This document shows positions 1 to 59,937 of a stretch of 64,000 bases of DNA, piece by piece (within the stretch, counting starts at the first letter, position 1; each line of letters opens with the position of its first letter). Below the pieces are notes generated by a model that was given only the letters and a program-made list of their open reading frames with translations, ran no database searches and was not told where the DNA came from. A program made the translations under genes and the position numbers. The DNA comes from Eledone cirrhosa (taxonomy: Eukaryota), in NCBI GenBank assembly GCA_964016885.1, contig OZ024757.1, positions 9,424,001-9,488,000 on the forward strand. Reading direction: 5' to 3'.

Positions 1-1
1 C

Positions 2-2374: not shown

Positions 2375-2409
2375 GTTTAAAATAGAGTGGAAAAGATGGG
2401 AAAGACCAC

Positions 2410-4422: not shown

Positions 4423-4724
4423 TCTTCTCTCTCCTGTAGTGATGATTGAGGAAGAAGAAGACGGAATGAGTGGGAGTGACGTATGAAATTTTTTTTTTTT
4501 TTGGTAGCCATGTTTTTTTGTTTAAAATGAAATTTTGGGTACAAAACCCCAATAACTGATTATTTAACCCCGAAGGGCCAAATAACGGACAGAAAGACCC
4601 CTCTCACGAGGAGGAGGGTGTCTTTATCAACAATTTGGTTCAAGTTTTAAACAATTTACAATTGTTTTAAGGGTTAAAAATTACTATACCTTACAGAGCC
4701 GAGCCTCCGTCAACCATGGCATTC

Positions 4725-4775
<51 letters not shown>
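4725..4775 (+). repeat. (AAT)n microsatellite, left edge of the Dong array
   Basis: Pure AAT run; similar runs separate every element up to 28659. Confidence 0.97.
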
Positions 4776-6813
4776 TGTCATAATAGATTGTCATAATAGA
4801 CACAAAAATCTATCGATTGCTTGGATAGATTATAAAAAAGCATTTGATAGTTTGCCACACAGTTGGATTGAAAAATGTTTAGAGATTTTCAAAATATCCC
4901 CCGTTATCAGGAGGTTTTTGTCATTCAGTATGAGGACATGGAGAACGACACTCCTTTTGAATAGTGAAACAAAATCACTGGAAGCTGGAGAAGTTAACAT
5001 TAATTGTGGAATTTTTCAGGGTGACTCTTTATCACCGCTTTTATTCTGCATCGCACTTATACCATTAAGTAAAATGCTCAATGAAACAAAACATGGATAT
5101 AGAGTCTATGACAAAACCATTAATCACCTGTTCTACATGGATGACCTGAAACTATTTGCAAAAAATGATGAACAATTGCAAGGGCTATTATCCACTGTAA
5201 AGCAGTTCAGTGATGACATTAAAATGGAGTTTGGACTGGATAAATGCGCCAAAGCAACGTTCACCAGAGGAAAGCTGCTGAAGAGTTCAGACATTAATCT
5301 TGATCGGGGGAACGTGATAAGAGAGCTTGATCAAGAACAAACTTACAAATATCTAGGTGTTTGTGAAGGAGACGGAATCAAGCACTCGACAATGAGGGAA
5401 AGGATAAGGAAGGAATGTTACCGCAGAGTCAGAGCAATCTTAAGAACGGAATTGAATGCAAGGAATAGGATCGATGCCATAAACACGCTTGCCATACCAG
5501 TAGTAACTTACAGTTACAATGTCATCAACTGGTCAAGCACAGAGATCCGTAGGCTCGATACAAAAATCCGAAAATTCTTAACCATGCACAGAATGCATCA
5601 CCCTAAGGCAGACATAGATAGAATATATCTCCCTAGGAAAGAAGGAGGACGTGGGTTAATCCAGTTAGACATTGCGTTGAAAACTGCAACAATTGGATTA
5701 TCCACATATCTAAGGGAATCACATGATTGGATGATCAAACTCGTTTTGAAACACGAAAGCACCAAAAGATCATATTCCATTACAAAAGATGCACAAAGAT
5801 ACAGTAATGGACTACAAATTTCAGGAGTCCCATTTACTGCTGAAATGGAAAACACAGAAAAAGCAAAGCAGGTAAAAGTAACTGCAAAGAAAGAACTGCT
5901 ACAGAAACTGGCTAAGAAATGGCAAGAAAAGCCTCTGTATGGAAAATACCCAGAGCGAGCTAACAATCCTGATGTTGACAAAACTTTAACCCATCAGTGG
6001 TTGGCATCCTCTGGACTGAAATCGGAGACTGAAGGACTGATTATATCCGCACAAGATCAGTGTCTGCCAACAAAAAATTACCAAGCCAACATAATAAAAA
6101 ATGGGTGCAGCCCATTATGCCGTGTATGCAAAAAACAACCAGAGACCATTGACCATATAATTTCAATGTGCAGTCCTATAGCTCCAACCGAATACCTAAA
6201 CAGGCATGACAGAGCTGCACAATACATACATTGGATAATGTGTAAGCATTTTGACCTGCCCCATCAAAAGAATTGGTGGGAGCATCAACCACCTCCCATA
6301 CTTGAAAAAGATCACATCTCAATCTTGTGGAACTTTAGCATCCAAACAGACCGAAAAATAGATGCAAATAGACCTGATATAATATTGAAGGACTTTCAAA
6401 GAGGGTATGCCTGCTAATTGATATGTCTGTTCCAATAGACAAGAATGTATCTATAAAAACATTTGAAAAATTGAGCAAGTATAAGGACCTGGAGATAGAA
6501 ATTGGAAAAATGTGGAAATTGAGAACTAAAACAATACCAGTGGATGTAGGCGCTCTGGGAATGATACCTAAGGGGTCTAACGACTACTTATCGCAAATCC
6601 CAGGAAACCCGCGTATAGGAGAAATACAAAAGATAGTACTAATGGGAACTGCCCATATACTAAGGAAGATCCTGTACATCACAAGTCTAAACACTAAGGA
6701 TGCATGTGTGAATATGTGTGTTCTTTCTTGAACATGGCGGACCTTGTTGTCTCTTGAGGTCACTGGTTGTGACTTGGTGATAACTCGTATAAACATAAAG
6801 CAAGATAAATGCA
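4774..6813 (+). mobile_element. R4/Dong-clade retrotransposon family A, copy A1 (5'-truncated, frameshifted)
   Basis: RT motifs FQGDSLSP and YMDD, CCHC (CRVC..H....C), RHD, RLE motif RPD..D; 1-bp deletion near 6400; 10-bp deletion removes the stop; ends in (AAT)n. Confidence 0.92.
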
Positions 6814-6841
6814 AATAATAATAATAATAATAATAATAATT

Positions 6842-7036
6842 TATCTCCAAAAGTTTCCGGGGATGGTTAAAGAAAATCGGCCCCTTCACGCTTTTTGGAA
6901 CGCTTCAAAAGGCATGCTTGCTTGGAACAGCAAGAACCCTCCGATACGTCCTGAATATCTGAGGCTGCAGGTAGTGGCTTGATATTCAATCCAACGGACT
7001 TTCCAGTTAACCAACATCAATGACTGAGATTCAAGG
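6842..7036 (+). mobile_element. R4/Dong family B, 3'-terminal fragment
   Basis: Matches the last ~195 bp of B1/B2 (ORF end + 3' UTR); (AAT)n on both sides. Confidence 0.9.
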
Positions 7037-7048
7037 AATAACAATAAC

Positions 7049-7128
<80 letters not shown>

Positions 7129-7155
7129 GAAGAAGAAGAAGAAGAAGAAGAAGAA
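7037..7155 (+). repeat. Compound (AAT)n(AAG)n microsatellite
   Basis: Read directly. Confidence 0.95.
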
Positions 7156-7880
7156 AGAACAATAAGAAAGAACTATTCTTAGCACAAATGTTGCATAAAG
7201 GTCCCATAAAGTTTCGGATCCATATTATATTGTTGTATCGCTCAAATATTCAATTTTGTATTATATATTTTGTATTCAAAAAAGAAAATGGTTATAAATG
7301 GAACAAAACACCCTCTGTCTACACTATATAGAACAGCGGCAATTTCAATTTCACCAACACCAGAAACTTGATACACTTGATACACTACCTATCCCATCAC
7401 ACTAAATATAATTTCACCAGCATCATAATAATAATTACTAGTATTATTGTCTCAAATTTTAAAAAATGTTTAATTCAAATTTTACGGGAATATGTCAACA
7501 CAAAATATAATGAAAATATATATTAAACATAGGAACACAAACTCATAGATACTATATCAGTAACCACAACACCACCGCTGCCACCACCCCACCACATCCA
7601 TCATCGCCGCCACCACTCATTCAATGCTACTGACACTATTCCCCTGTTAACTTGAGAGAGAAAAGGGAAGGTGACGGTAGCACTAGACAAGAGAGAGGCT
7701 AGCAAAAGATATAAATAGATTGACTTGGTGACCTTGCCACGGCCAAACGTCTACATCAACAATTATGGGACTGCTGGCTCACCCCTTCCTCACCAACAAT
7801 ATAAAAAGCCCCGGCACCACCACCGACATAGCCAACAACAATAACAGCCAACTACAACAAAAAGTATATTATATTATTGT

Positions 7881-8066
7881 AATTGTTTCTACTTTAGGCA
7901 CAAGGCCAGCAATTACCCAGTGCATTACTGGTACTTTATTTTATCTACCCCGTAAGGATGAAAGGCAAAGTCAACCTCGGCGGGATTTGAACTCAGATCG
8001 TAAAGGGACGTAACTATGCTGGAAAGCATGGCGTCCGACCCTCTACCAATACTGCCAATCCACCGC
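7881..8066 (-). mobile_element. tRNA-derived SINE (ATT-tailed family) in the A2 upstream region
   Basis: B-box-like GAGTTCAAATCC, body GCCTTTCATCCTTACGGGGT, tail ...GTAGAAACAATT; absent at the equivalent A3 position (20040). Confidence 0.85.
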
Positions 8067-8378
8067 AATGCACTGGGTGATTGCTGGCCTTGTGCCTGGA
8101 GTGGAGACAATTATTAATAATTTCATTCTTAAGCCACGCAATGCTCACATTAAGGAACCACTCATGATAATAACAATTTAATTAAAAAAAAAAAAAAAAC
8201 AAAAAAAAAAAAAGAAAACCCCGTGACCAAGAAATACCGGGATGGCGGCCGGCGGGGAATAGCCATGTCTCTAGGGGAGAACGACCCCTCTAGTCTTGGT
8301 TGACACTCGTTCTAGAAGTGGTAACACGAAATGATTACCCCTTGGCGGATAAGGATAAAACGCGACAAAATAAAGTAA

Positions 8379-11300
8379 ATGTCTAATGATAAAATCTCAT
8401 ACCGGATCGGCCGTCACCCGGGTAAAAAAGGGCCGCGTCCCTCAGAGAGGAACCAGACTGGGGTCGAAAAATCAGCTAATGGTTCAAACCTTCCCATCAC
8501 TTCGGAGCTGGAGACCTCCCATAACCGGAATACTCCTACTGTTGGCCCTCCATGCTCACCACCAAGAAATCCAAAGAAAAAGAGAGAAAAATGGTCAAGG
8601 GAAGATAATAAAGAAGTCCTTGAGGCTTTCTACACTGCCATGTACTACCCATCAAATACATCGAATACAGAACAAACATATATCAACTGGAAAAAGAAAC
8701 ATCCCGAAAACAGAGGCTATAGTGACAGTAACAAACTAGCCAATATACGAAGAAATATTGTAAGAAAAAAGTTACTAACTGATATAGAAATTGATCAGAT
8801 CAAGCTAGTAGCACAAAGTCAGCGAAGGGAAAATGAAGCATGTGTCAGTGAAAACGAGGTAAACTGTAACACTTCGAATCCCAGGGTTGGGGCGGAATCA
8901 CTGGCAACAGAACAAATTAAAGAAAGGAGCGAAAAAGTGGAGGGAGTGCGTGCTCAGGATGATACTCCAAATGAAAATAATGAGATCGTAAAAGATAAAG
9001 AGATGAATGAGAATGAACTTGCCAACTTGAAGGATGAAATTATGATCGAATGGATGAAAATGAAAGAATCTGACATGGGGGAACGAGACACCCTCCCTAA
9101 GATCCAGAACTCCAAACAGAACCAAAAGATAATACACAAGACTAACATAATTCTCAAAAACATTATCATCACAAACAAACTAAACATTACTGACTTAAAT
9201 CATCTCTATTATGCATCGGCTAAAGTCACCACTCACTTATGTGGAGTGAAGATGAAAAAACAAAGGAATTCCCACAAGAAATCTACTTGGCAAGATAATA
9301 TCAATCGCCAAATAAACCTTCTCCGATCTGACATAGAAATTTTAACAAACTATAAAGTAGGTGAACATGTTAAACAAACTAAACTTAGAAAATTGAAAAA
9401 AAAGTACAGTATAAGATCAACATGTGACATAGACATGCTGATAGAAACAATCAAGCAAAAAGTGTCGGCCAAAGCTGCTCGTATAAGGCGCTTTGAAAAA
9501 CGATCTAGATTCTATAAGGACAATAATATGTTCAAAAACAACCAAAGAAACTTCTACAGAAAAATTGGTAAGTCAACAATAACTGCTAAATCAATACCAC
9601 CCAAGGAGGAAGTGCAAGAATTATGGGAAAAGATCTGGGCCGAAGAAAAAGTTCATAACATACATGCCCCATGGATAGACAGACAAATGAACGAAACAGC
9701 TCACCTTGAAGAACAAACATGGGAAAATATAACAGTTGAACAGCTGCGCTTGACTCTAAGAAAAACCAGCAAATGGAAATCCCCAGGAAAAGACAAAATA
9801 CAAAACTTTTGGATAAATGCCTTCACAGAGTTTCATGAGCTGTTAGCCCAATTTTACAATGAAATAGTTAAGGAGCCAGAAAAGATACCATCATGGCTAG
9901 TTAACGGCATTACATTCCTGCTACCGAAGAATGATGAGACAAACAATCCCCAAAATTACAGACCGATAACCTGCTTGACCACAATGTATAAAATGTTAAC
10001 ATCAGTCCTAACTGAATGCACATATGACCACCTGATAACAAATGACCTATTTCCCATTGAGCAGAAAGGGTGTAAACGAGGCTCATATGGCTGTAAGGAT
10101 CAGCTTCTGGTTAACAAAATGATACTGGAAGATTGTCATAATAGACACAAAAATCTATCGATTGCTTGGATAGATTATAAAAAAGCATTCGATAGTTTGC
10201 CATACAGTTGGATTGAAAAATGTTTAGCGATTTTCAAAATATCCCCCGTTGTCAGGAGGGATTTGTCATTCAGTATGAGGACATGGAGAACGACACTCCT
10301 TTTGAATAGTGAAACAAAATCACTGGAAGCTGGAGAAGTTAACAGTAATTGTAGAATTTTTCAGGGTGACTCTTTATCACCGCTTTTATTCTGCATCGCA
10401 CTTATACCATTAAGTAAAATGCTCAATGAAACAAAACATGGATATAGAGTCTATGACAAAACGATTAATCACCTGTTCTACATGGATGACCTGAAACTAA
10501 TTGCAAAAAATGATGAACAATTGCAAGGGCTATTATCCACTGTGAAGCAGTTCAGTGATGACATTAAAATGGAGTTTGGACTGGATAAATGCGCCAAAGC
10601 AACGTTCACCAGAGGAAAGCTGCTGAAGAGTTCAGACATTAATCTTGATCGGGGGAACGTGATAAGAGAGCTTGGTCAAGAAAAATCTTACAAATATTTA
10701 GGTGTTTGTGAAGGAGACGGAATCAAGCACTCGACAATGAGGGAAATGATAAGGAAGGTATGTTACCGCAGAGTCAGAGCAATCTTAAGAACGGAATTTG
10801 AATGCAAGGAATAGGATCGATGCTATAAACACGCTTGCCATACCAGTAGTAACCTACAGTTACAATGTCATCAACTGGTCAAGCACAGAGATCCGTAGGC
10901 TCGATACAAAAATCCGAAAATTCTTAACCATGCACAGAATGCATCACCCTAAGGCAGACATAGATAGAATATATCTCCCTAGGAAAGAAGGAGGACGTGG
11001 GTTAATCCAGTTAGACATTGCGTTGAAAACTGCAACAATTGGATTATCCACATATCTCAGGGAATCACATGATTGGATGAACAAACTCGTTTTGAAACAC
11101 GAAAGCACCAAAAGATCATATTCCATTACAAACGATGCACAAAGATACAGTAATGGACTACAAATTTCAGAAGTCCCATTTACTGCTGAAATGGAAAACA
11201 CAGAAAAAGCAAAGCAGGTAAAAGTAACTGCAAAGAAAGAATTGCTACAGAAACTGGCTAAGAAATGGCAAGAAAAGCCTCTGTATGGAAAATACCCAGA

Positions 11301-12031
11301 GCGAGCTAACAATCCTGATGTTGACAAAACTTTAACCCATCAGTGGTTGGCATCCTCTGGACTGGAATCGGAGACTGAAGGACTGATTATATCGGCACAA
11401 GATCAGTGTCTGCCAACAAAAAATTACCAAGCCAACATAAAAAAAAAATGGGTGCAGCCCATTATGCCGTGTATGCAAAAAACAACCAGAGACCATTGAC
11501 CATATAATTTCAATGTGCAGTCCTATAGCTCCAACCGAATACCTAAACAGGCATGACAGAGCTGCACAATACATACATTGGATAACGTGTAAGCAGTTTG
11601 ACCTGCCCCATCAAAAGAATTGGTGGGAGCATCAACCACCTCCCATACTTGAAAAAGATCACATCTCAATCTTGTGGAACTTTAGCATCCAAACAGACCA
11701 AAAAATAGATGCAAATAAACCTGATATAATATTGAAGGACTTTCAAAGGAGGGTATGCCTGCTAATTGATATGTCTGTTCGAATAGACAAGAATGTATCT
11801 ATAAAAACATTTGAAAAATTGAGCAAGTATAAGGACCTGGAGATAGAAATTGGAAAAATGTGGAAATTGAGAACTAAAATAATACCAGTGGTTGTAGGCG
11901 CTCTGGGAATGATACCTAAGGGGTCTAACGACTACTTATCGCAAATCCCAGGAAACCAGCGTATAGGAGAAATACAAAAGATAGTACTAATGGGAACTGC
12001 CCATATACTAAGGAAGATCCTGTCAATATAA
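8379..12031 (+). pseudogene. Family A RT-RLE ORF broken by two frameshifts (~10798, ~11445)
   Basis: ORFs 8379-10814, 10798-11499 and 11513-12031 join into the same protein as A3. Confidence 0.9.
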
Positions 12032-12171
12032 GTACATCACAAGTCTAAACACTAAGGATGCATGTGTGAATATGTATGTTCTTTCTTGAACATGGCGGAC
12101 CTTGTTGTCTCTTGAGGTCACTGGTTGTGACTTGGTGATAACTCGTATGAACATAAAGCAAGATAAATGCA

Positions 12172-12202
<31 letters not shown>

Positions 12203-12230
12203 TTAATAATAATAATAATAATAATAATAA

Positions 12231-15200
12231 CAATCCTCGATAAGAGTGTTTAAATAGTCGAACATAAACAGTTCGAATAACGGTGAAATGGAGACTAGAA
12301 CGTCATGTGACAGACTCTCACCCAACAGGTGCCCCCTGGCTCAGCAGCAGGAACCTGACTGTCAACCAAATACTGCTGATGTTGGAGGAAGGAGAAGAAG
12401 GAAAGGGGCCAGAACCAACTGGACGAAAGAATTGAATAGAACTGTTATGCAATGCTACCTGAAAAGTAACCCCAAGGAGAGGGGCTACAGGAGACGGATG
12501 CATAACATCTGGAACGAGATTGGTTTATTTAAATTAGATGAACAAAAATTGGCCGGGCAGGCTCGGGTAATAAGAACTAATGGGTGGATAAGCGAGCTGG
12601 AACTGGAGGAACTGAGCAGAGAGAATGGCTTGGAGATGGCGGGTGTAGTATGCCAGACAGGCGAGCCGGTGGGAAATGAAGGTGAGGAGGTCCTGAGAAC
12701 GGAGGAACCACCCGAAGCAGACAATGATCTGAGTACTGAGATAAATAATACCTGGAACAGAGATACGGCCACTGAGGAGATGAATGCTGACGGGCTAGGA
12801 CAAGATTCGGTTGACATCCTAAATTTAGTGGTAGATGAATTGAACAATGATAGTGGGAGACCTATGAACCTAAGATTTGTAGACAGGAAAAAGATAAAAG
12901 AAACAACAGCTAAGGTAAACAAAGTCATCCCATACCTTGAGGCGAGGAGCCTTCACCAGTGCAACAATATCCTCAGAGCAACAGCAAATACGGTGAGGAA
13001 ACTACTTGGTATAAAAGCGAGAGGAAACAACAGACAAGAAAGAGCAGAGCCGTGGTGGAAGAAGCGACTGAGTGGGCAAATCGGGGAAATGGGAAATGAC
13101 ATAGGAAAGCTTGAGTCACTACTGAATGGGACACTAAAAAACATAGGCACTAAAAATAGACTGGAAATAAAATGCAAAACTAGGAGTAAAAAGCTAAATA
13201 TTATCATAGAGGAATTGAAGCAACGCATTGTAGCAAAGAGTGCAAAAATCAGGCGATACAAGAACAGAGTCAGCTAGTATAAACAGAACCGCATGTTCGA
13301 CAACAACCAGAAGATGCTGTTTGGACAGCTTGAGGGCAAAGAAAGAGGCAACGACTTGATCCCTGGGGCGGAGCAAACTAAAACATTCTGGAGAGGAATA
13401 TGGGAGCAGGATGTTAGACACAATGCCCAGGCAGGGTGGATTGAGACAGTACAGAGGGAGATCGGTGAGCAGGCACAGCAACAGACTGATTTGAGTATCA
13501 CAGTTGAAACTCTTAAGGGGCAGGCCAAAAAACTAACCAACTGGAAATCACCAGGCCCAGATGGTGTGCAGGGGTATTGGATTAAACATCTAACATCCCT
13601 CCACCCGAAGCTGACGGCCATGTTCAATGACTGCTTGGTGTCGGGTGAGGTGCCAGAGTGGTTGACAAAAGGTACCACAGTTCTGATAATGAAAGACCGA
13701 ATCAAGGGTAATGATGCTACCAACTATAGACCTATCACATGTCTGCCCGTAATGTGGAAACTGTTGACGAGCATTGTGTCTGAGGAAATCTACCATCACC
13801 TCCACACAAACAACTTGTTACCGGACGAACAGAAAGGATGCCGAAAGAAGTCACGTGGTACAAAGGACCAGTTGCTTATTGATAAGATGGTAATGGGGAA
13901 TTGCAGGAGGAGACACACTGATCTTGCCATGGGATGGATAGACTACAGAAAGGCATTTGACATGGTGCCTCATTCCTGGATCACCAAAAGCCTGGAGATC
14001 TTCAGGGTGGCAGATAACATCAGACAGTTGCTAGGCAGGAGTATGGGGTCCTGGGAGACAGAGTTGACATCAACTGGAGTATCCTTGGGAAGCGTGAAGA
14101 TCAAGAGAGGTATCTTCCAGGGAGATAGCCTGTCCCCTCTGTTGTTTGTCCTTGCCCTGATGCCCTTGACCATTATGCTGCGAAAAGTGAGAGCAGGATA
14201 CAAGTTGGGAAGGGGAGAGCTTACCATCAATCACCTCCTCTTCATGGACGATCTTAAGCTCTTCGGGAAAAGTGAGAAGGAGTTGGATGTGCTTGTTGAC
14301 ACTGTCCGTATTTTCAGCAGTGATATATGTATGCAGTTTGGTATTGGTAAATGTGGAGTCATTGTGATGAAGAGGGGTAGGTTGAGCATAAGTAACGGGA
14401 TCCAGATACCAACAGGTGAGATGATAAAGGAAATTGACTCTGATGAAGGATACAAGTATTTGGGCGTGCTGGAGGCTAATGGCATAAAGAACAAAAAAAT
14501 GAAGGAATTGTTAAGAACTGAATACATTCGGAGAGTAAGGAGCGTATTGAAGTCACATCTGAACAGCAGAAATGCCATAAGCGCAGTAAATTCCCGAGCT
14601 GTGTCTATTATTAGGTACAGTGCGGGAATTCTGAGATGGAATGTTGCTGAACAGAAAGAAATGGATAGGAAGACTAGGAAGCTATTGACTATCTACAACA
14701 TGTTCCACAAGAGGAGTGATGTCGATAGACTCTACCTAAGGAGATCTGAGGGTGGAAGAGGTCTTATCAGCATAGAGGAATGTGTTCAGATGGAGAAAAA
14801 CAACCTATACAAATACGTGACCTATAGTAAGGAGCCAATGCTCAGAGCTGTACTGAAGGAGGGGACAGTAGGCCAGGGGATATCCAAGGAGGAAATAACA
14901 TCAAGGAGGAAGAGCAGCCTTAAGGGAAAATCCCTTCATAGTACCTTCTTTGAGAAAACTGAATTCAGAGATCCACAGACATGGAACTGGTTGAAAAGAG
15001 GAGACCTTAAAAAGGCTACAGAAGGAATCTTAATGGCTGCCTAGGAGCAGGCCTAAAAACGAAGTGGTTGAAACACCATATTTACAAGGAGGATGCTAGC
15101 CCACTGTGCAGGATCTGTGGAGAGAGAGAGAAGACTGTGGCTCACATTGTATCCGAGTGTAAACACCTAGCCCAGACCCACTATAAGGGCTGGAGACACG

Positions 15201-15753
15201 ATGTGATGGGCAGGGTGATCCACTGGCACCTGTGCAAAGTAAACAATCTACCACATTCTGAGAAATGGTATGAGCATAGGCCAGAGGCGGTGATGGAGAA
15301 CAGTCAGGTGAAGGTGCTGTGGGATTTTAGGATACAGACGGACAAAAAACTGGAACACAATAGACCTGACCTGGTGGTTGTGGACAAAGAAAAAAGATCG
15401 TGCCTGATTGTGGATGTGGCCTGCCCGTTCGACACGAGAGTGCAAGAGAAGGAGAGGGAGAAAATTAACCGATACCAGGACCTAAAGTGGGAGGTGAAAA
15501 GGATTTGGAACTGCCATGAAGTCAAAGTGATCCCGATTGTCATAGGCGCACTGGGGACTATCTCCAAAGGTTTCCAGGGATGGTTAAAGAAAATCGGCCC
15601 CTTCACGCTTTTTGGAACGCTTCAAAAGGCATGCTTGCTTGGAACAGCAAGAACCCTCCGATACGTCCTGAATATCTGAGGCTGCAGGTAGTGGCTTGAT
15701 ATTCAATCCAACGGACTTTCCAGTTAACCAACATCAATGACTGAGATTCAAGG
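12231..15753 (+). mobile_element. R4/Dong family B, copy B1 (complete ORF region, leader truncated)
   Basis: RT motifs FQGDSLSP and FMDD, CCHC CRICGERE.TVAHIVSEC, RLE motif NRPDLVVVD..DVACP; (AAT)n on both sides. Confidence 0.92.
12288..15679 (+). pseudogene. Family B RT-RLE ORF with stops at 13275 and 15042 plus a frameshift
   Basis: ORF track pieces 12288-13277, 13293-15044 and 15068-15679. Confidence 0.9.
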
Positions 15754-15785
15754 AATAACAATAACAATAATAATAATAATAATAA

Positions 15786-18484: not shown

Positions 18485-18493
18485 AATAACAAC

Positions 18494-18537
<44 letters not shown>

Positions 18538-18538
<1 letters not shown>

Positions 18539-18706
18539 TATACTAAGGAAGATCCTATCAATATAAGTACATCACAAGTCTAAACACTAAGGATGCATGT
18601 TTAAAAATGTATGTTCTTTCTTGAACATTGCGGACCTTGTTGTCTCTTGAGGTCACTGGTTGTGACTTGGTGATAACTCGTATGAACATAAAGCAAGATA
18701 AATGCA
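18538..18706 (+). mobile_element. R4/Dong family A, 3'-terminal fragment
   Basis: ORF end + 3' UTR of family A between (AAT)n runs. Confidence 0.9.
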
Positions 18707-18724
18707 AATAATAATAATAATAAT

Positions 18725-19141
18725 CAGACGGACAAGAAACTGGAACACAATAGACCTGACCTGGTGGTTGTGGACAAAGAAAAAAGATCGTGTCTGATTG
18801 TGGATGTGGCCTGCCCGTTCGACACGAGAGTGCAAGAGAAGGAGAGGGAGAAAATTAACCGATACCAGGATTAAAGTGGGAGGTAAAAAGGATTTGGAAC
18901 TGCCATGAAGTCAAAGTGATCCCCATTGTCATAGGCGTACTGGGGACTATCTCCAAAAGTTTCCAGGGATGGTTAAAGAAAATCGGCCCCTTCACGCTTT
19001 TTGGAACGCTTCAAAAGGCATGCTTGCTGGGAACAGCAAGAACCCTCCGATACGTCCTGAATATCTGAGGCTGCAGGTAGTGGCTTGATATTCATTCCAA
19101 CGGACTTTCCAGTTAACTAACATCAATGACTGAGATTCAAG

Positions 19142-19142
<1 letters not shown>
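18725..19142 (+). mobile_element. R4/Dong family B, 3' fragment (RLE part + UTR)
   Basis: Matches the 3' ~420 bp of family B; lies between (AAT)n runs. Confidence 0.9.
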
Positions 19143-19228
<86 letters not shown>

Positions 19229-22200
19229 GATAGGGAAGAAGACGCACGAGGTGGTAGAACGTCACGAAATTGCTCCCGTAAGTTTTTTGATTTTTAACAT
19301 ATTTAAATCAATTGTGAAAGAACAATTCTTAGCACAAATGTTGCATAAAGGCACCGAATGAGGTCCCATAAAGTTTCGGATCCATATTATATTGTTGTAT
19401 CGCGCAAATATTCAATTTTGAATTATATATTTTGTATTCAAAAAAAGAAAATGGTTATAAATGGAACAAAACACCCTCTGTCTACACTATATAGAACAGC
19501 GGCAATTTCAATTTCACCAACACCAGAAACTTGATACACTACCTATCCCATCACACTAAATATAACGGCAACTTCACCGGCATCATAATAATAATTACTA
19601 TTATTATTGTCTCAAATTTTAAAAAATGTTTAATTCAAATTTTACGGGAATATGTCAACACAAAATATAATGAAAATATATATTAAACATACGAACACAA
19701 ACTCATAGATACTATATCAGTAACCACAACACCACCGCTGCCACCACCCCACCACATCCATCATCGCCGCCACCACTCATTCAATGCTACTGACACTATT
19801 CCCCTGTTAACTTGAGAGAGAAAAGGGAAGGTGGTGGTAGCACTAGACAAGAGAGAGGCTAGCAAAAGATATAAATAGATTGACTTGGTGACCTTGCCAC
19901 GGACAAACGTCTACATCAACAATTATGGGACTGCTGGCTCACCCCTTCCTCACCAACAATATAAAAAGCCCCGGCACCACCACCGACATAGCCAGCAGCA
20001 ATAACAGCCAACTACAACAAAAAGTATATTATATTATTGTAATGCACTGGGTGATTGCTGGCCTGGAGTGGAGACAATTATTAATAATTTCATTCTTAAG
20101 CCACGCAATGCTCACATTAAGGAACCACTCATGATAATAACAATTTAAAAAAAACAACAAAAAGAAAACCCCGTGACCAAGAAATACCGGGATGGCGGCC
20201 GGCGGGGAATAGCCATGTCTCTAGGGGAGAACGACCCCTCTAGTCTTGGTTGACACTCGTTCTAGAAGTGGTAACACGAAAAGATTACCCCTTGGCGGAT
20301 AAGGATAAATCGCGACAAAATAAAGTAGATGTCTAATGATGAAATCTCATACCGGATCGGCCGTCACCCGGGTAAAAAAGGGCCGCGTCCCTCAGAGAGG
20401 AACCAGACTGGGGTCGAAAAATCAGCTAATGGTTCAAACCTTCCCATCACTTCGGAGCTGGAGACCTCCCATAACCGGAATACTCCTACTGTCGTCCCTC
20501 CATGCTCACCACCAAGAAATCCAAAGAAAAAGAGAGAAAAATGGTCAAGGGAAGATAATAAAGAAGTCCTTGAGGCTTTCTACACTGCCATGTACTACCC
20601 ATCAAATACATCGAATACAGAGCAAACATATATCAACTGTAAAAAGAAACACCCCGAAAACAGAGGCTATATTGACAGTAACAAACTAGCCAATATACGA
20701 AGAAATATTGTAAGAAAAAAGTTACTAACTGATATAGAAATTGATCAGATCAAGCTAGTAGCACAAAGTCAGCGAAGGGAAAATGAAGCATGTGTCAGTG
20801 AAAACGAGGTAAACTGTAACACTTCGAATCCCAGAGTTGGGGCGGAATCACTGGCAACAGAACAAATTAAAGAAAGGAGCGAAAAAGTGGAGGGAGTGCA
20901 TGCTCAGGATGAAACTCCAAATGAAAATAATGAGATCGTAAATGATAAAGAAATGAATGAGAATGAACTTGCCAACTTGAAGGATGAAATTATGATCGAA
21001 TGGATGAAAATGAAAGAATCTGACATGGGGGAACGAGACACCCTCCCTAAGATCCAGAACTCCAAACAGAACCAAAAGATAATACACAAGACTAACATAA
21101 TTCTCAAAAACATTATCATCACAAACAAACTAAGCATTACTGACTTAAATCATCTCTATTATGCATCGGCTAAAGTCACCACTCACTTATGTGGAGTGAA
21201 GATGAAAAAACAAAGGAATTCCCACAAGAAATCTACTTGGCAAGATAACATCAATCGCCAAATAAACCTTCTCCGATCTGACATAGAAATTTTAACAAAC
21301 TATAAAGTAGGTGAACATGTTAAACAAACTAAACTTAGAAAATTGAAAAAAAAGTACAGTATAAGATCAACATGTGACATAGACATGCTGATAGAAACAA
21401 TCAAGCAAAAAGTGTCGGCCAAAGCTGCTCGTATAAGGCGCTTTGGAAAACGATCTAGATTCTATAAGGACAATAATATGTTCAAAAACAACCAAAGAAA
21501 CTTCTACAGAAAAATTGGTAAGTCAACAATAACTGCTAAATCAATACCACCCAAGGAGGAAGTGCAAGAATTCTGGGAAAAGATCTAGGCCGAAGAAAAA
21601 GTTCATAACATACATGCCCCATGGATAGACAGACAAATGAAAGAAACAGCTCACCTTGAAGAACAAACATGGGAAAATATAACAGTTGAACAGCTGCGCT
21701 TGGATCTAAGAAAAACCAGCAAGTGGAAATCCCCAGGAAAAGACAAAATACAAAACTTTTGGATAAATGCCTTCACAGAGTCTCATGAGCTGTTAGCCCA
21801 ACTTTACAATGAAATAGTTAAGGAGCCAGAAAAGATACCATCATGGCTAGTTAACGGCATTACATTCCTGCTACCGAAGAATGATGAGACAAACAATCCC
21901 AAAAATTACAGACCGATAACCTGCTTGACCACAATGTATAAAATTTTAACATCAGTCCTAACTCAATACACATATGACCACCTGATAACAAATGACCTAT
22001 TTCCCATTGAGCAGAAAGGGTGTAAACGAGGCTCATATGGCTGTAAGGATCAGCTTCTGGTTAACAAAATGGTACTGGAAGATTGTCATAATAGACACAA
22101 AAATCTATCGATTGCTTGGATAGATTATAAAAAAGCATTTGATAGTTTGCCACACAGTTGGATTGACAAATGTTTAGAGATTTTCAAAATATCCCCCGTT

Positions 22201-24119
22201 ATCAGGAGGTTTTTGTCATTCAGTATGAGGACATGGAGAACGACACTCCTTTTGAATAGTGAAACAAAATCACTGGAAGCTGGAGAAGTTAACATTAATT
22301 GTGGAATTTTTCAGGGTGACTCTTTATCACCGCTTTTATTCTGCATCGCACTTATACCATTAAGTAAAATGCTCAATGAAACAAAACATGGATATAGAGT
22401 CTATGACAAAACCATTAATCACCTGTTCTACATGGATGACCTGAAACTATTTGCAAAAAATGATGAACAATTGCAAGGGCTATTATCCACTGTAAAGCAG
22501 TTCAGTGATGACATTAAAATGGAGTTTGGACTGGATAAATGCGCCAAAGCAACGTTCACCAGAAGAAAGCTGCTGAAGAGTTCAGACATTAATCTTGATC
22601 GGGGGAACGTGATAAGAGAGCTTGATCAAGAACAAACTTACAAATATCTAGGTGTTTGTGAAGGAGACGGAATCAAGCACTCGACAATGAGGGAAAGGAT
22701 AAGGAAGGAATGTTACCGCAGAGTCAGAGCAATCTTAAGAACGGAATTGAATGCAAGGAATAGGATCGATGCCATAAACACGCTTGCCATACCAGTAGTA
22801 ACTTACAGTTACAATGTCATCAACTGGTCAAGCACAGAGATCCGTAGGCTCGATACAAAAATCCGAAAATTCTTAACCATGCACAGAATGCATCACCCTA
22901 AGGCAGACATAGATAGAATATATCTCCCTAGGAAAGAAGGAGGACGTGGGTTAATCCAGTTAGACATTGCGTTGAAAACTGCAACAATTGGATTATCCAC
23001 ATATCTAAGGGAATCACATGATTGGATGATCAAACTCGTTTTGAAACACGAAAGCACCAAAAGATCATATTCCATTACAAAAGATGCACAAAGATACAGT
23101 AATGGACTACAAATTTCAGGAGTCCCATTTACTGCTGAAATGGAAAACACAGAAAAAGCAAAGCAGGTAAAAGTAACTGCAAAGAAAGAACTGCTACAGA
23201 AACTGGCTAAGAAATGGCAAGAAAAGCCTCTGTATGGAAAATACCCAGAGCGAGCTAACAATCCTGATGTTGACAAAACTTTAACCCATCAGTGGTTGGC
23301 ATCCTCTGGACTGAAATCGGAGACTGAAGGACTGATTATATCGGCACAAGATCAGTGTCCGCCAACAAAAAATTACCAAGCCAACATAATAAAAAATGGG
23401 TGCAGCCCATTATGCCGTGTATGCAAAAAACAACCAGAGACCATTGACCATATAATTTCAATCTGCAGTCCTATAGCTCCAACCGAATACCTAAACAGGC
23501 ATGACAGAGCTGCACAATACATACATTGGATAATGTGTAAGCATTTTGACCTGCCCCATCAAAAGAATTGGTGGGAGCATCAACCCCCTCCCATACTTGA
23601 AAAAGATCACATCTCAATCTTGTTGAACTTTAGCATCCAAACAGACCGAAAAATAGATGCAAATAGACCTGATATAATATTGAAGGACTTTCAAAGGAGG
23701 GTATGCCTGCTAATTGATATGTCTGTTCCAATAGACAAGAATGTATCTATAAAAACATTTGAAAAATTGAGCAAGTATAAGGACCTGGAGATAGAAATTG
23801 GAAAAATGTGGAAATTGAGAACTAAAACAATACCAGTGGTTGTAGGCGCTCTGGGAATGATACCTAAGGGGTCTAACGACTACTTATCGCAAATCCCAGG
23901 AAACCCGCGTATAGGAGAAATACAAAAGATAGTACTAATGGGAACTGCCCATATACTAAGGAAGATCCTGTCAATATAAGTACATCACAAGTCTAAACAC
24001 TAAGGATGCATGTGTGAATATGTGTGTTCTTTCTTGAACATGGCGGACCTTGTTGTCTCTTGAGGTCACTGGTTGTGACTTGGTGATAACTCGTATAAAC
24101 ATAAAGCAAGATAAATGCA
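19229..24119 (+). mobile_element. R4/Dong family A, copy A3 (longest copy)
   Basis: Begins right after (AAT)n; 1.1 kb leader, full ORF, 3' UTR, (AAT)n tail. Confidence 0.92.
20329..23979 (+). pseudogene. Family A RT-RLE ORF (~1216 codons) with a single nonsense codon (TGG>TAG at 21586)
   Basis: 20329-21588 and 21637-23979 share a frame; A2 has TGG at this codon. Confidence 0.92.
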
Positions 24120-24147
<28 letters not shown>

Positions 24148-24150
<3 letters not shown>

Positions 24151-24587
24151 TTTCAGGGTGACTCTTTATCACCGCTTTTATTCTGCATCGCACTTATACC
24201 ATTAAGTAAAATGCTCAATGAAACAAAACATGGATATAGAGTCTATGACAAAACCATTAATCACCTGTTCTACATGGATGACCGGAAACTATTTGCAAAA
24301 AATGATGAACAATTGCAAGGGCTATTATCCACTGTGAAGCAGTTCAGTGATGACATTAAAATGGAGTTTGGACTGGATAAATGCGCCAAAGCAACGTTCA
24401 CCAGAGGAAAGCTGCTGAAGAGTTCAGACATTAATCTTCATCGGGGGAACGTGATAAGAGAGCTTGATCAAGGATGCATGTTTAAAAATGTATGTTCTTT
24501 CTTGAACATGGCGGACCTTGTTGTCTCTTGAGGTCACTGGTTGTGACTTGGTGATAACTCGTATGAACATAAAGCAAGATAAATGCA
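24148..24587 (+). mobile_element. R4/Dong family A internally deleted derivative (RT core fused to 3' UTR)
   Basis: FQGDSLSP...ELDQ joined at AAG (24470-24472) to GATGCATG of the 3' UTR. Confidence 0.88.
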
Positions 24588-24642
<55 letters not shown>

Positions 24643-24643
<1 letters not shown>

Positions 24644-27600
24644 CCCCTGCTACATCGTAGAACCCCCACTAAAAGAGGAAGGCATCAAAATATATAAATA
24701 GACTGAATTGATGACCCGGTCAAAATCAAAAAAAAAAAAATCAAAATCAAAGCAGCACAGCAACAACGAAAAACGTAAAGAAAATATGAATGAAGAGAAA
24801 AACAAACAGACGGACAGAGAAGGGAAGGGAAAAACCAAGTCAGACATTCAAACACTACATTACAATGAAACATATGCTTATTCATTTTGGGGGGGTTTTT
24901 TGCTTGTTTGTTTGTTTGTTTATTTATGTTCGTCTACAGCGTGATAATGCCACACAAAAATCACGTGGAGTGACGGAACCACCGGAGACGATGAATTCAC
25001 CGGTGGTTATGTAACCATACATTCGCCAATCCTCGATAAGAGTGTTTAAATGTCGAACCTAAACAGTTCGAATAACGAATAACGGTGAAATGGAGACTAG
25101 AATGTCATGTGACAGACTCTCACCCAACAGGTGCTCCCTGGCTCAGCAGCAGGGACCTGGCTGTCAACCAAATACTGCTGGTGTCGGAGGAAGAAGAAGA
25201 AGGAAAGGGACCAGAACCAAGTGGACGAAAGAATTGAATAGAACTGTTATGCAATGTTACCTGAAGAGTAACCCCAAGGAGAAAGGCTATAGGAAACGGA
25301 TGCATAACATCTGGAACGAGATTGGTCTATTTAAATTAGGTGAACAAAAATTGGCCAGGCAGGCTCGGGTAATAAGAACTAATGGGTGGATAAGCGAGCT
25401 GGAACTGGAGGAACTGAGCAGAGAGATTAGCTTGGAGATGGAGAGTGGAGTATGCCAGGCAAACGAGCCAGTGGGAAATGAAGGGGAAGAGGTCCTGAGA
25501 ACGGAGGAACCACCCGAAACAGACAATGATTTGAATGCTGAGATAAATAATACCTGGAACAGAGATACGGCCAACTGAGGAGAAGAATGCTGATGGGCTA
25601 GGACAAGATTTGGTTGATATACTAAACTTAGTGGTAGATGAATTGAACAATGATAGTGGGAGACCTATGAACCTAAGATTTGTAGACAGGAAAAATTAAA
25701 AGAAACAACGGCTAAGGTAAACAAAGTCATCCCATACCTTGAGGCGAGGGGCCTTCACCAGTGCAACAATATCCTCAAAGCAACAGCAAATACGGTGAGG
25801 AAACTACTTGGTATAAAAGCGAGAGGAAACAACAGACAAGAAAGAGCAGAGCCTTGGTGGAAGAAACGACTGAGTAGTCAAATCAGGGAAATGAGAAATG
25901 ACATTGGAAAGCTTGAGTCCCTACTGAATGGGACATTAAAAAACATAGATACTAAAAATAGACTGGAAATAAAGTACAAAACTAGGAGGAAAAAGCTAAA
26001 TATTATCATAGAGGTACTGAAGCAACGCATTGTAGCCAAGAGTGCAAAAATCAGGCGATACGAGAACAGAGTCAGCCAGTATAGACAGAACCGCATGTTC
26101 GACAACAACCAGAAGATGCTGTTTGGACAGCTTGAAGGGAAAGAAATAGGCAACGACTTGATCCCTGAGGCGGAACAAACTAAAACATTCTGGAGAGGAA
26201 TATGGGAGCAGGATGTTAAACATAATGACCAGGCAGTGTGGATTGAGACAGTACAGAAGGAGATCAGTGAACAGGCACACCAACAAACTGATTTGACTAT
26301 CACAGTTGAAATTCCTAAGGGGCAGGCCAAAAGAATAACCAACTGGAAATCACCAGGCCCAGATGGTGTGCAGGGGTATTGGATTAAAAATATAACATCT
26401 CCCCACCCGAAACTGACAACCATGTTCAATGACTGCTTGATGTCGGGTGAGGTACCAGAATGGTTGACAAAAGGTACCACAGTTCTGATAATTAAAGACC
26501 GAATCAAGGGTAATGATGTTACCAACTATAGACCTATCACATGTCTGCCCGTAATGTGGAAACTGTTGACAAGCATTATGTCTGAGGAAATCAACCATCA
26601 CCTCCACACAAATAACTTGTTACCGGACGAACAGAAAGGATGCCAAAAGAAGTCACGTGGTACAAAGGACCAGTTACTTATTGATAAGATGATAATGAGG
26701 AATTGCAAGAGGAGACACACTGGTCTTGCCATGGGATGGATAGACTACAAAAAGGCATTTGACATGGTGCCTTATTCTTGGATCACCAAAAGCCTGGAGA
26801 TCTTCAAGGTGGCAGATAACATCAGACAGTTGTTGGGCAAAAGTATGAAATCCTGGGAAACAGAGTTAACATCAGCTGGAGAATTTTGGGAGGCGTGAAG
26901 ATCAAGAGAGGTATCTTCCAGGGAGATAGTCTGTCCCCTCTGTTGTTTGTCCTGGCCCTGATGCCCTTGACCATTGTGCTGCAAAAAGTGAGAGCAGGAT
27001 ACAGGTTGGGAAAGGAAGGGCTTACCATCAATCACCTCCTCTTCATGGACGATCTTAAGCTCTTCGGGAAGAGTGAGAAGGAGTTGGATGTGCTTGTTGA
27101 CACTGTCCGTATTTTCAGCAATGATATATGTATGTAATTTGGTATTAGTAAGTGTGGAGTCCTTGTGATGAAGAGGGTAAATTGAGCAGAAGTAACGGAA
27201 TACAGGTACCAACAGGTGAGATGATGAAGGAAATTGACAATGAAGACGGATACAAGTATTTGAGTGTTCTGGAGGTTGATGACATCAAGAACAAAAAAAT
27301 AAAGGAATTGATAAGAACTGAATACCTTCAGAGAGTAAGGAGCGTATTAAAGTCACATCTGAACAGTAGGAATGCCATAAGTGCAGTAAATTCCCGAGCT
27401 GTGTCTATTATTAGGTACAGTGCGGGAATTCTGAGATGGAATGTTGCTGAACAAAAAGAAATGGATAGGAAGACTAGAAAACTATTGACTATCTACAACA
27501 TGTTCCACAAGAGGAGTGATGTCGATAGACTCTACTTAAGGAGATCTGAAGGTGGAAGAGGTCTTATCAGCATAGAGGACTGTGTTCAGATGGAGAAAAC

Positions 27601-28552
27601 AACCTACACAAATACGTGACTGATAGTAAGGAGCCAATTCTCAGAACTGTACTGAATGAGAAGTCAATAGACCAGGGGTTGTCCAAGGAGGAAATAACAT
27701 CAAGGAGAAGGAGCAGCCTTCAGGAAAAATCCCTTCATAGTACCTTCTTTGAGAAAACTGAATTCAGAGATCCACAGACATGGAACTGGTTGAAAAGAGG
27801 AGACCTTAAAAAGGCTACAGAAGGAATCTTAATGGCTGCCTAGGAGCAGGCCTAAAAACGAAGTGGTTGAAACACCATATTTACAAGGAGGATGCTAGCC
27901 CACTGTGCAGGATCTGTGGAGAGAGAGAGAAGACTGTGGCTCACATTGTATCCGAGTGTAAACACCTAGCCCAGACTCACTATAAGGGCTGGAGACATGA
28001 TGTGATGGGCAGGGTGATCCACTGGCACCTATGCAAAGTAAACAATTTACCACATTCTGAGAAGTGGTATGAGCATAAGCCAGAGGCGGTGATAGAAAAC
28101 GATGAGGTGAAGGTGCTGTGGGATTTTAGGATACAGACGGACAAGAAACTGGAACACAATAGACCTGACCTGGTGGTTGTGTACAAAGAAAAAAGATCGT
28201 GCCTGATTGTGGATGTGGCCTGCCCATTCGACACGAGAGTGCAAGAGAAGGAGAGGGAGAAAATTAACCGATACCAGGACTTAAAGTGGGAGGTAAAAAG
28301 GATTTGGAACTGCCATGAAGTCAAAGTGGTCCCGATTGTCATAGGCGCACTAGGTACTATCTCAAAAGGTTTCCAGGGATGGTTAAAGAAAATTGGCCCC
28401 TTCACGCTTTTTGGAACGCTTCAAAAGGCATGCTTGCTGGGAACAGCAAGAACCTTCCGATACGTCCTGAATATCTGAGGCTGCAAGTAGTGGCTTGCTA
28501 TTCATTTCAACAAACTTTCCAGTTAACTAACATCAATGACTGAGACTCAAAG
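24643..28552 (+). mobile_element. R4/Dong family B, copy B3 (longest leader, most decayed ORF, 25090-28478)
   Basis: Colinear with B1; multiple frameshifts and stops; (AAT)n flanks. Confidence 0.9.
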
Positions 28553-28573
28553 AATAATAATAATAGTAATAAT

Positions 28574-28626
28574 AATTGTTTCTACTTTAGGCACAAGGCC
28601 AGCAACTACCCAGCGCATTACTGGTA
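28574..28626 (-). mobile_element. 3' tail fragment of the ATT-tailed SINE within (AAT)n
   Basis: Matches 7881-7933. Confidence 0.8.
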
Positions 28627-28630
28627 GTTT

Positions 28631-28659
<29 letters not shown>

Positions 28660-28661
<2 letters not shown>

Positions 28662-30251
28662 TTTATTTATTGGCCACAAGTGCAGACATCAAGAAAAACT
28701 TTTCAGAGGGCACAGGACGATATAGGACGGTACGATGTGTGTTTTGTGCATGTAAAGATTTTTTTATTATTTATAAAAGAAAAGAAAAAAAGACATAGAA
28801 ACATATATATATATAAAGAATAAAAATGAAAATTGAAACAATGAAAAATTCCCCAATAGGGGGAAACCTCCAAGCGTTAATCGAGGCGAAAACCACACAA
28901 AAACCACGGCCACCCTGACCACCAGGGCAAGCGCCCTCTCTCAATTTTTCCATTCCTCAAACTACAAGCGTATATTCAGAGCGTTCCCATTCACTCTGAC
29001 CATTCTCGCTCCATTCACCCACCTTTCAACAAACTTGTTAGAAGACAGCACTTGCCTCTCCACCCTGATTTTCCTCTTCAAGTGAAACTTGAAGAGGTTA
29101 ATCAGGGATTCGCCGAAGAGGAAAGCGTCTGTCTTTAACCCTTTCAACCTTGTCCACCACACGATCTCTTTCGCCATGGCCACCAGGCAGATCAAAACCG
29201 CCCGCCCTTCCACCTTGAAGGAAGACGGCGAGACCATCTGCACAATGGCCTCAGTCGATAACCGGATCGGTCCTTCACGCGACAGCAACTGTTCGACATA
29301 GCTCCACAAGTCAGCAATGCTCGGGCACTGAGCGAGTGCGTGCGCGACGGTTTCGTCGCTCAGCGCGCATCTCGGACAGGCTCGGCTGATGGCACTTCCG
29401 TACTTGTAGAGCTTATCTTGAACCGGCAACGCTCCCCGGTAGCACTGCCAGGCCAGGGATTTCTGGAAGTTATCCATAGGCGCTGGGCTGAAAGTTCTCC
29501 AGAAGAGAGCAAACAGCTGATCTTCTTCGACGCCCAGGATCTATACGAGAACATCGTCGCTCTTCACCTCCACTAGTCCTCTATAGAACGCCGAAGTGGA
29601 TGTCCCACCGATACTGGTTCCCAGCTTGCAGAGGGCAGTGAGCGCCTCTAGACATTCCAGTTTCCAAACGCTATCCCTCCGTCTTTTCTTGACCCAGGAC
29701 TGCAGCTCCGTCAAGGAGACGAGCTGTGGGAAAACGTGCCTGGCGAACGGCGACCACACCTATTCACCGTCAAGGAAGCACCGGAGATGTCGCAGCCTCA
29801 GCGCATGTTTGCGCATCATCAGCCATGGCTTGCCCAGTCCTCCACGCAACGGGTGTTGACAGCAGATGGATCGTCTGACCATGGGAGCGCGTCCCTTCTA
29901 CAAAAAGCGGTAGAGGAGGCGCTCCATTTTGGTGAGAATTGGGTCGGAGCAAGGGACGATGGTGAGGCGGTAGCAGATAACGAATGCGATGTACGCTTTC
30001 GCCAACTCCGCCTGGCCTTTCAAATACAGCTTCCTTTCGGCCCTTTTCTAGGTGAGGGAGGCCACCCTGCTCGTCACCTCGCTCCAGTTTTTCTCCATCT
30101 GGAAGTCCGGACCGAACCAGACCCCGAGCAATTTAACCGGTCTGTCCGTCCAACGCCCCACGACGCTGTCGGACAGCATGGACTTGCCTTTACAAGTACC
30201 GAACTGAAAGCCCACCGACTTTTCCTTGTTTATCTTTGATACTTCGTATTC
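28660..30251 (-). mobile_element. Tx1-type LINE copy 2 (5'-truncated; RT C-terminus, zinc finger, 3' UTR, (ATT)n tail)
   Basis: 30060-30250 aligns with 53-251 of copy 1; CPRC..DETVAHALAQC finger; ends ...CCAATAAATAAATC(ATT)n on minus. Confidence 0.9.
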
Positions 30252-32607: not shown

Positions 32608-35990
<3,383 letters not shown>

Positions 35991-37475: not shown

Positions 37476-37519
37476 AGGTATATATATATATATATCAGGA
37501 AATTATTATTCATATCGTA

Positions 37520-39102
37520 AATAACTTCTCCAATCCAATCTCTTCTATAGATAACACTAGGTCACTTGTTAATAACTCTGTTAATCTCTCTAATCGCACT
37601 TACAATTGCCCTTTTAAAAATAAATGTCCTCTCAACAAAAATTGTCTTGAAGAAAACTTAATCTACGAATGTAAAGTTATAACTGACACCAATTCCTTTA
37701 CCTATTTTGGCTCCACTTCCACCTCCTTTAAACCTCGTTTTTATAATCATCATTCGTCTTTTAAATACCAACTTAAAAGAACCAACACAGCACTCTCAGA
37801 ACTCATATGGTCCTTGAAAGACAAAAATATTAACTATAACATCTCTTGGAAAAAGGTTTCTTCTGCTTCTCCATACTTGAACAGTTCTCTATCCAAGACA
37901 TTCAATCTCTGTTTATGTGAAAAATTTACCATTATATCTAATTTAGATTCTATAATAAATAGACGCACTGACTTATTCTCTCTCTGCTTGCATAAATTCC
38001 ACAGAACATTCCATACAGTATACAGCTAATATCTAATAATTTACCAATTTAAAATCCTTTTCTCAAAGGTACATGTATATATATACATATATATATTTTT
38101 TTAAATATACCCATCTTTCTACCTTATTTCAATGTTATTTATTATACATTATATAATACTAGTTACTCATTCTATTTCACTCCTGTTTATCACTTCCCTT
38201 TCTTTCTTTTCCCATTTTCTTTTCTTTTCTCTTTCTTTTAATTTCTAGCCCCTAATTTGTACCTTTTCTTCCTAGACACTTCTCAATTAACATTGTACCT
38301 AACGTAGAAACAATTATTACACAGCACAATATATTCTTACTCTATATCACCTTAAAAAAATCCTTCGTAAACATAAACATTTTTTTGACGTTAGATTATT
38401 CATTCTCAAATCATTATTTTTTTCTCCCTTTCATGCTCATCTAACTTATACATATTACACTTATTCATCCTCTCTTCTACTTCTTTCACAATATATCCTT
38501 AATTACATTACTATTGCTATATTTTTATATTTTTTAATAATACATATCAACAATTTCTTTCCATCGCACATATTATTAAACCCTTAAATATTATTCTTAA
38601 TACATATTAACAATTTCTTTTCATCGCACATATTATTAAACCCTTAAATATACAAACCTTAATTTAACATTATTCTAAATTTTTCTCTTCGTTAATTTTC
38701 AAATTCCTTTAATTTATATATTATCTTCCAACGGTTTTTCAACCTCTCTATGTAAAACAATATATTTTTCTCAGTTATAAAAGCTATCTCTCTCTATCAC
38801 CCATCTCTCCTCCTATCTCATCCTTCCTCATTATACTCCTCCCCCTCCACTTTTTACTCTCATCTCCTCCACTTTTTCATCCTTTCCACCCCCTTCAATT
38901 TTTTTCACAATATCACACATCAATCTAAAACTACTTTTCATATGTTGATTTACAACTGCACTATTCACAAGTGTGTTTTAACCTTCATATCATGTCTCCC
39001 TATTTTATCTGATGAAAACGCAAATGTTATTGTAAGATGATATTTGTTTTTGAAATGCGCATAATAAAATACATGGAACTCTTTTAACCATCTTTTGATC
39101 TT
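37520..39102 (+). mobile_element. Penelope-like element 3' fragment (GIY-YIG, 3' UTR, hammerhead) ending at (TA)n
   Basis: NCPFKNKCPLNKNCL..LIYECKV..YFGSTST..LCLCEKFTII..CLH in 37600-38029. Confidence 0.78.
39001..39071 (+). ncRNA. Type I hammerhead motif
   Basis: tattttat CTGATGA [stem II gcaaatgt/atatttgt] GAAA tgcgca TA ataaaata; perfect 8-bp stem I and palindromic stem III. Confidence 0.75.
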
Positions 39103-39129
39103 ATATATATATATATATATATAACATAC

Positions 39130-55466: not shown

Positions 55467-59937
<4,471 letters not shown>

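Follow-up and report, generated by a model that had tools for sequence, protein, structure and literature searches.

Long interspersed nuclear elements (LINEs) of the Tx1 type include families specific for (TC)n (Kibi), (TTC)n (Koshi) and, in crocodilians, (TTCC)n/(TTTC)n, with further targets given in the figure and supplement of the same report; the share of flanks that marks a family as microsatellite-specific is set there at over 20% (PMC4494074). (TAA)n has been described as the target of Dong elements in insects, molluscs and cnidarians (PMC7998251, PMC3812793), and in Octopus vulgaris recent activity has been reported for Dong-R4 and L1-Tx1 families (PMC13282606). TRAS1 and SART1 insert into (TTAGG)n in opposite directions, and annealing between RNA and target has been proposed for SART1 and R1 (PMC7265360). 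Keno, which uses an apurinic/apyrimidinic-type endonuclease (APE), and Utopia, which uses a restriction-like endonuclease (RLE), share one site in U2 small nuclear RNA genes (PMC4640811). Here we describe a 64,000-nucleotide stretch of the Eledone cirrhosa genome (contig OZ024757.1, positions 9,424,001 to 9,488,000; the window), in which an array of two R4/Dong-type families is bracketed by two Tx1-type LINE copies at one AAT/ATT tract. We ask of this locus how the Tx1-type ends came to touch the tract.

Two Tx1-type copies at the edges of a Dong array

Self-comparison and junction tables resolved the array at 4776-28552 into ten insertions from two R4/Dong families, all on the plus strand (Table 1). 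All ten 3' ends run into (AAT)n, which is also where eight of the ten 5' junctions start; the remaining two belong to the full Dong A copies, each of which lies behind a spacer of about 1 kb (7169-8215 and 19229-20163), so the array is not one clean nest. The array is bracketed by two Tx1-type copies, both on the minus strand, head-to-tail and touching the ATT/AAT tract. On the left, the 5' end of copy 1 directly adjoins (AAT)17 at 4725-4775, which is (ATT)17 on the minus strand. On the right, copy 2 terminates in AATAAATAAATC, followed on the minus strand by (ATT)9, a 60-bp 3' piece of a short interspersed nuclear element (SINE) and an imperfect ATT run. The original prediction, an earlier note on this DNA, had claimed this bracketing by the 5' end of one Tx1 copy and the ATT-followed 3' end of another, the plus orientation of every Dong copy and the use of the (AAT)n microsatellite by Dong. 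The junctions at 4724 and 28660 and the counts given above bear out all three, the Dong target having already been published.

The Tx1-type open reading frame (ORF) 1 of copy 1 encodes a CX2CX4HX4C (CCHC) knuckle. ORF2 encodes APE and reverse transcriptase (RT) domains in copy 1, and a C-terminal zinc-binding zf-RVT domain is found at the 3' end of copy 2. The best match of ORF2 in the PDB is human L1 ORF2p (E 3e-43), and its best named relative is an Argonauta hians protein (58%, 25 matches). These features point to a Tx1-type LINE of the L1 group, the label Tx1 being taken from the domain layout, with no named reference among the 25 ORF2 matches.

Copy 1 is probably young, judging from its open ORF2 (no stops in 791 codons) and from the 33 differences in 3062 bases that separate it from six well-covered contigs of one public run, X1, a count that leaves out two lower-depth X1 pieces (9/163 and 18/160 different). 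We compared reads and contigs of four of the eight listed runs (X3, X6, X7 and X1) with window 1-4760; 4719-4760 was skipped as a repeat, so the junction flanks of other copies lay outside that comparison. In all four runs the depth of the copy 1 family, which is high-copy, stays high up to ~4718, and 4719-4724 therefore fits the 5' end of copy 1. At 1371-1372, where the reduced-representation libraries have a restriction site, large loose ends rich in A/T were seen, and we interpret them as ligation products.

Copy 2 carries 4 stops in 429 codons and differs from copy 1 by 36 mismatches in 231 shared bases (84% identity), which assigns the two to different subfamilies and rules out a single Tx1 family. 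Its 3' end at 28660 shows zf-RVT and AATAAA and no poly(A). The ATT that follows was considered as decayed poly(A), which is ruled out by strand composition, the ATT run being on the sense strand. The imperfect run of about 8 units beyond the SINE piece is common to the tail of the last Dong B. Insertion of copy 2 into the middle of a SINE was likewise rejected, as the 5' part of the SINE is not at the other end of copy 2. No duplication of the 3' flank of copy 2 was seen at its 5' junction (~30251).

A loose ATT preference and its rivals

We favour, with a probability of about 0.5, a reading in which insertions piled up, one inside another, in a single AAT/ATT tract and Tx1 would have a loose preference for ATT through annealing of its RNA to the target, rather than the strictness of Kibi or Koshi. 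The only true Tx1 5' end in the window (copy 1) and the only true 3' end (copy 2) both touch ATT, on the same strand. Outside the array, AAT/ATT tracts of at least four units make up 24 of 40,000 bases of the window, so that chance contact of two Tx1 ends with such tracts is unlikely, an estimate made on n=2 ends in a window chosen after the fact. Copy 1 appears young, and the SINE piece (3/56 divergent) and the last Dong B (5-7%) are older; it is therefore likely that copy 1 landed beside a pre-existing tract.

In the favoured reading, the Dong families would sit in the tract on the AAT strand and the flanking Tx1-type LINEs on the ATT strand, the two enzymes nicking opposite strands. A Tx1 RNA without poly(A) and ending in AUU could pair with the nicked AAT strand to prime synthesis, and read-through into the downstream flank would bring ATT to new sites, as at copy 2, and re-find ATT, as at copy 1. 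Divergence alone suggests a possible order of events: the old copy 2 of Tx1 came first, with its ATT run; that run then received a SINE 3' piece; the Dong B at 24643-28552 followed; the younger Dong copies entered the tails; and the young copy 1 arrived last, in the left tract.

Relatives of the window Tx1 were sought in genome contigs. The scan returned 44 loci, 39 of which (L001-L038 and L040) lie in one record set, in our view animal DNA that was placed in the bin of a bacterial metagenome-assembled genome. Their ORF2 is 44% identical to that of the window Tx1, and in a quick ORF2 tree, built without named reference elements, they form the sister group of the window lineage (SH-aLRT, an approximate likelihood-ratio branch support, of 100). 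The sister-group elements lie in head-to-tail arrays with a period of about 6.4-6.9 kb. A motif common to them picked out 50 distinct 3' ends, which come from one host and a few arrays and hence are not 50 independent events; none of them has poly(A). These elements show that stacking head-to-tail without a poly(A) tail is habitual in the wider Tx1-type lineage. After AATAAA, the joints carry an array-specific, non-repetitive word of 15-18 bases (for example L005 6931-8400 and L026 around 1000), which in one array also precedes the first unit. Such arrays suggest repeated insertion at the element's own duplicated target. The 3' end of the window Tx1 matched one of seven sister-group ends at p 0.03, the other six comparisons not being significant. 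The Tx1 5'-end motif had no match in metagenome contigs, the ORF2 C-terminal alignment had none in metagenome, genome or viral contigs, and full ORF2 had none in viral contigs.

A third Tx1 copy lies at 55708-59768. This single insertion joins three parts: a Tx1 piece in inverted orientation, a second Tx1 piece in sense orientation that takes up at the point where the first stops, and the 3' end of a SINE. It looks like a twin-primed Tx1/SINE chimera, by analogy with the twin-priming geometry reported for L1 (PMC2912911). With this copy included, (ATT)n is touched by one of the three Tx1 5' junctions in the window and by the single true Tx1 3' end.

Several observations weigh against a Tx1 preference for ATT. 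The case consists of two junctions only, from two subfamilies. The truncated 5' junction of copy 2 (~30251) adjoins CA/TA repeats and has no ATT, and the third copy, though primed from a SINE end, entered a non-microsatellite site. Of the loose ends for window 1-4760, the 24 that were listed include no (AAT)n (4383 more exist), 4719-4760 lying outside that comparison. ATT/AAT repeats occur at 0 of the 50 sister-group 3' ends, so ATT is not an ancestral target. The original prediction had this Tx1 as an (ATT)n-targeting lineage whose tail builds the landing pad for Dong. The first part is plausible, as both true ends touch ATT and no poly(A) is present, but the 5' junction of copy 2 has no ATT. 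The second part is possible, although SINE insertion and duplication could have supplied or lengthened the tract.

It is somewhat unlikely, in our view, that Tx1 inserts without specificity in A/T-rich DNA, the tract having arisen from a SINE end with target duplication and been amplified by Dong, so that the Tx1 contacts are coincidental and picked out post hoc. The high copy number of the copy 1 family fits such indiscriminate insertion, as do the 5' flank of copy 2 and the site of the third copy, neither of which is an ATT tract. However, coincidence would have to occur twice, independently and in one orientation, where tracts are as scarce as they are outside the array, and the (ATT)9, which is 5' to the SINE piece, starts exactly at the Tx1 3' end after AATAAA.

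If the Tx1 endonuclease targeted (ATT)n as strictly as Kibi and Koshi target their own repeats, the ATT after copy 2 would be target DNA whose 5' duplication was lost with truncation or later. Both true Tx1 ends touching ATT agree with such strictness, many Tx1 families are reported to be target-specific and some of them specific for microsatellites (PMC4494074), and the bases after AATAAA in the sister group resemble target DNA. We nevertheless regard strict targeting as unlikely, since the 5' junction of copy 2 lacks ATT and the sister-group ends lack a microsatellite.

The SINE bears on a further possibility. Nine SINE 3' ends were found in the window, four on the plus and five on the minus strand, and they carry one to three ATT units; one of the nine has at least three units, and the end at 28576 is the only one in a long tract. 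As two pairs of ends are duplicated loci, this amounts to about one in seven sites. The target duplications (3, 18 and 19 bp) start with ATT and lie at ordinary A/T-rich, non-repeat sites. Given these sites and the single end of nine in a long tract, the SINE uses a short ATT match and is neither a microsatellite specialist nor a third user of the microsatellite. The original prediction had counted it as a user of the same repeat, a claim contradicted by these numbers; its observation of a SINE tail on the minus strand in the run is correct for the piece at 28632-28573, but other pieces inside the run are on the plus strand (8067-8115 and 20039-20082). No significant match was found between the SINE 3' end and the 3' ends of the window Tx1, Dong A or Dong B (p 0.12, 0.27 and 0.57). 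The SINE 3' end (28577-28632) has a word of 12-13 bases in common with three of seven sister-group subfamily 3' untranslated regions (UTRs; L001, L005 and L034), at p 0.002-0.006, uncorrected and for a word noticed before testing, or 0.04-0.08 by local alignment; the remaining four 3' UTRs gave no match. The shared word is a weak hint that the SINE may ride a Tx1-type enzyme as its partner LINE. Because of this word and the SINE-primed chimera at 55708-59768, we also considered a relay of two enzymes, in which an ATT-specific octopod Tx1-type enzyme would also carry the SINE and seed ATT tracts that Dong colonises from the other strand; we hold such a relay to be doubtful.

A source other than insertion, whether a later deletion, recombination of repeat tracts with one another or an assembly error, is most improbable for the Tx1 contacts: the array does hold a near-duplicate of ~5 kb (spacer and Dong A, 1.7-1.8% apart) and an internally deleted Dong A, but both joins fall at element termini, which is not expected of random rearrangement.

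Dong families, spacers and other features of the window

Dong A and Dong B are 40% identical in protein. Each has a single ORF with RVT_1 as the only Pfam match and no APE; RHD and PD-(D/E)xK (PD..D..K) motifs of the RLE type follow the RT in both, and their PDB matches are R2 proteins only. By this layout and the (TAA)n target, rather than by a tree with named elements, both appear to match the R4/Dong clade. Their use of (AAT)n at this locus is supported and already known, molluscs included, and is ordinary taken alone. For an HDV (hepatitis delta virus)-like ribozyme at the Dong 5' end, Rfam gave no match and a strict descriptor, run without a positive control, found none; Rfam likewise gave no match in the window or in six loci. 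The two full Dong A copies are 1.8% apart, and the Dong B at 24643-28552 is the most diverged, at 5-7% from the other Dong B copies. The truncated Dong A has a 13-bp tandem duplication (4768-4800) at its 5' junction.

A non-coding spacer accompanies each full Dong A. It begins at a different point in each case, both times behind an (AAT)n tail. The divergence between the spacers (1.7%) is about that of the Dong A copies themselves, and the spacer may be a long 5' UTR or 5' extension of Dong A, a 5' transduction or a duplicated flank. The two spacers also represent the filled and the empty site for the SINE at 7880-8064.

Table 1. Positions of the array, its brackets and related insertions in the window.
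Feature	Position	Strand	Remarks
Tx1-type LINE copy 1	1-4724	minus	5' end ~4719-4724; ORF1 ~2413-4510; ORF2 from 2374, off window edge
(AAT)17	4725-4775		left remnant of target tract
Dong A, 5'-truncated	4776-6840	+	with (AAT)9
Dong B 3' piece	6841-7168	+	196 bp; with (AAT)n and (AAG)n
Spacer 1	7169-8215		ahead of full Dong A
SINE, full	7880-8064	minus	non-repeat site with 3-bp duplication; lies in spacer 1, no counterpart in spacer 2
SINE 3' piece	8067-8115	+	second copy 20039-20082, also +
Dong A, full ORF	8216-12230	+	with (AAT)n
Dong B, near full length	12231-15786	+	with tail
Dong B, 5'-truncated	15787-18537	+	with tail
Dong A 3' piece	18538-18724	+	169 bp; with (AAT)6
Dong B 3' piece	18725-19228	+	418 bp; with (AAT)28
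Spacer 2	19229-20163		1.7% from spacer 1
Dong A, full ORF	20164-24148	+	with (AAT)9
Dong A, internally deleted piece	24149-24642	+	with (AAT)18
Dong B	24643-28552	+	most diverged copy
SINE 3' piece and imperfect ATT run	28553-28632	minus	piece 60 bp (28632-28573); run shared with Dong B tail
(ATT)9	28631-28659	minus	directly after Tx1 copy 2 3' end
Tx1-type LINE copy 2	28660-30251	minus	older; 5'-truncated; 5' junction at CA/TA repeats
Third Tx1 copy	55708-59768	minus	5'-inverted, fused to SINE 3' end; 18-bp target duplication, non-microsatellite site

Elsewhere in the window, a 28-bp satellite occupies 60930-63189 (about 81 copies, 92% matches) and a degenerate tandem repeat of 22-24 bp lies at 50723-51305. 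A 414-bp inverted repeat pair (95%; 32709-33122 and 35578-35990) surrounds an ORF remnant. ORFs at 33345-34001, 37478-38029 and 39099-39680 resemble Penelope GIY-YIG ends, and RT and zinc-finger remnants at 40403-42500 resemble an RTE-type LINE. In the latter interval the ORF is on the plus strand and the tblastn match on the minus strand, which suggests rearranged pieces.

Comparison with known systems

We found no report of an ATT-targeting Tx1 in the literature searched, from which Repbase and the majority of subscription journals were absent. Should the preference of Tx1 for ATT prove general across the genome, ATT would join the list of Tx1 microsatellite targets. Tx1 and Dong would then provide a naturally occurring pair of endonucleases, unrelated to each other, that act on one repeat from opposite strands; in such a system enzyme specificity could be cleanly told apart from RNA-DNA annealing. 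The preference would also help to account for retrotransposon hot spots in the genomes of octopods.

There are known precedents both for two elements using one repeat on opposite strands and for APE and RLE elements converging. The convergence proposed in the original prediction is thus not new, having been published for Keno and Utopia; at this locus the Tx1 part is a plausible hypothesis. Keno and Utopia resemble the present pair as APE and RLE elements converging on one target, but theirs is a gene with identical 3' flanks, whereas here it would be a microsatellite, with each element using a different strand. TRAS1 and SART1 are similarly two LINE families that enter one simple repeat in opposite directions, with RNA-target annealing proposed; unlike the present pair, the two are both APE elements, they occupy telomeric repeats and their specificity has been tested.

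The Dong of Bombyx mori and other R4/Dong elements share with the Dong families here a single ORF, RT with a PD-(D/E)xK-type endonuclease and both ends in sense-strand (TAA)n. The present array differs in that two families with 40% identity occupy it and in that two full Dong A copies have an upstream spacer of ~1 kb. The relatives at L001-L038 and L040 are like the window Tx1 in their head-to-tail stacking, lack of poly(A), sister-group position and 44% ORF2 identity, and they differ in joints made of 15-18-base non-repetitive words and never of ATT (0/50). Kibi and Koshi, whose targeting of microsatellites the original prediction had correctly cited as established (PMC4494074), and the crocodilian Tx1 families share with the window Tx1 the design of an L1-group APE and RT LINE, a gag-like ORF1 and ends touching a microsatellite. 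The likeness is drawn from layout, and the repeat unit here would be ATT, a candidate specificity.

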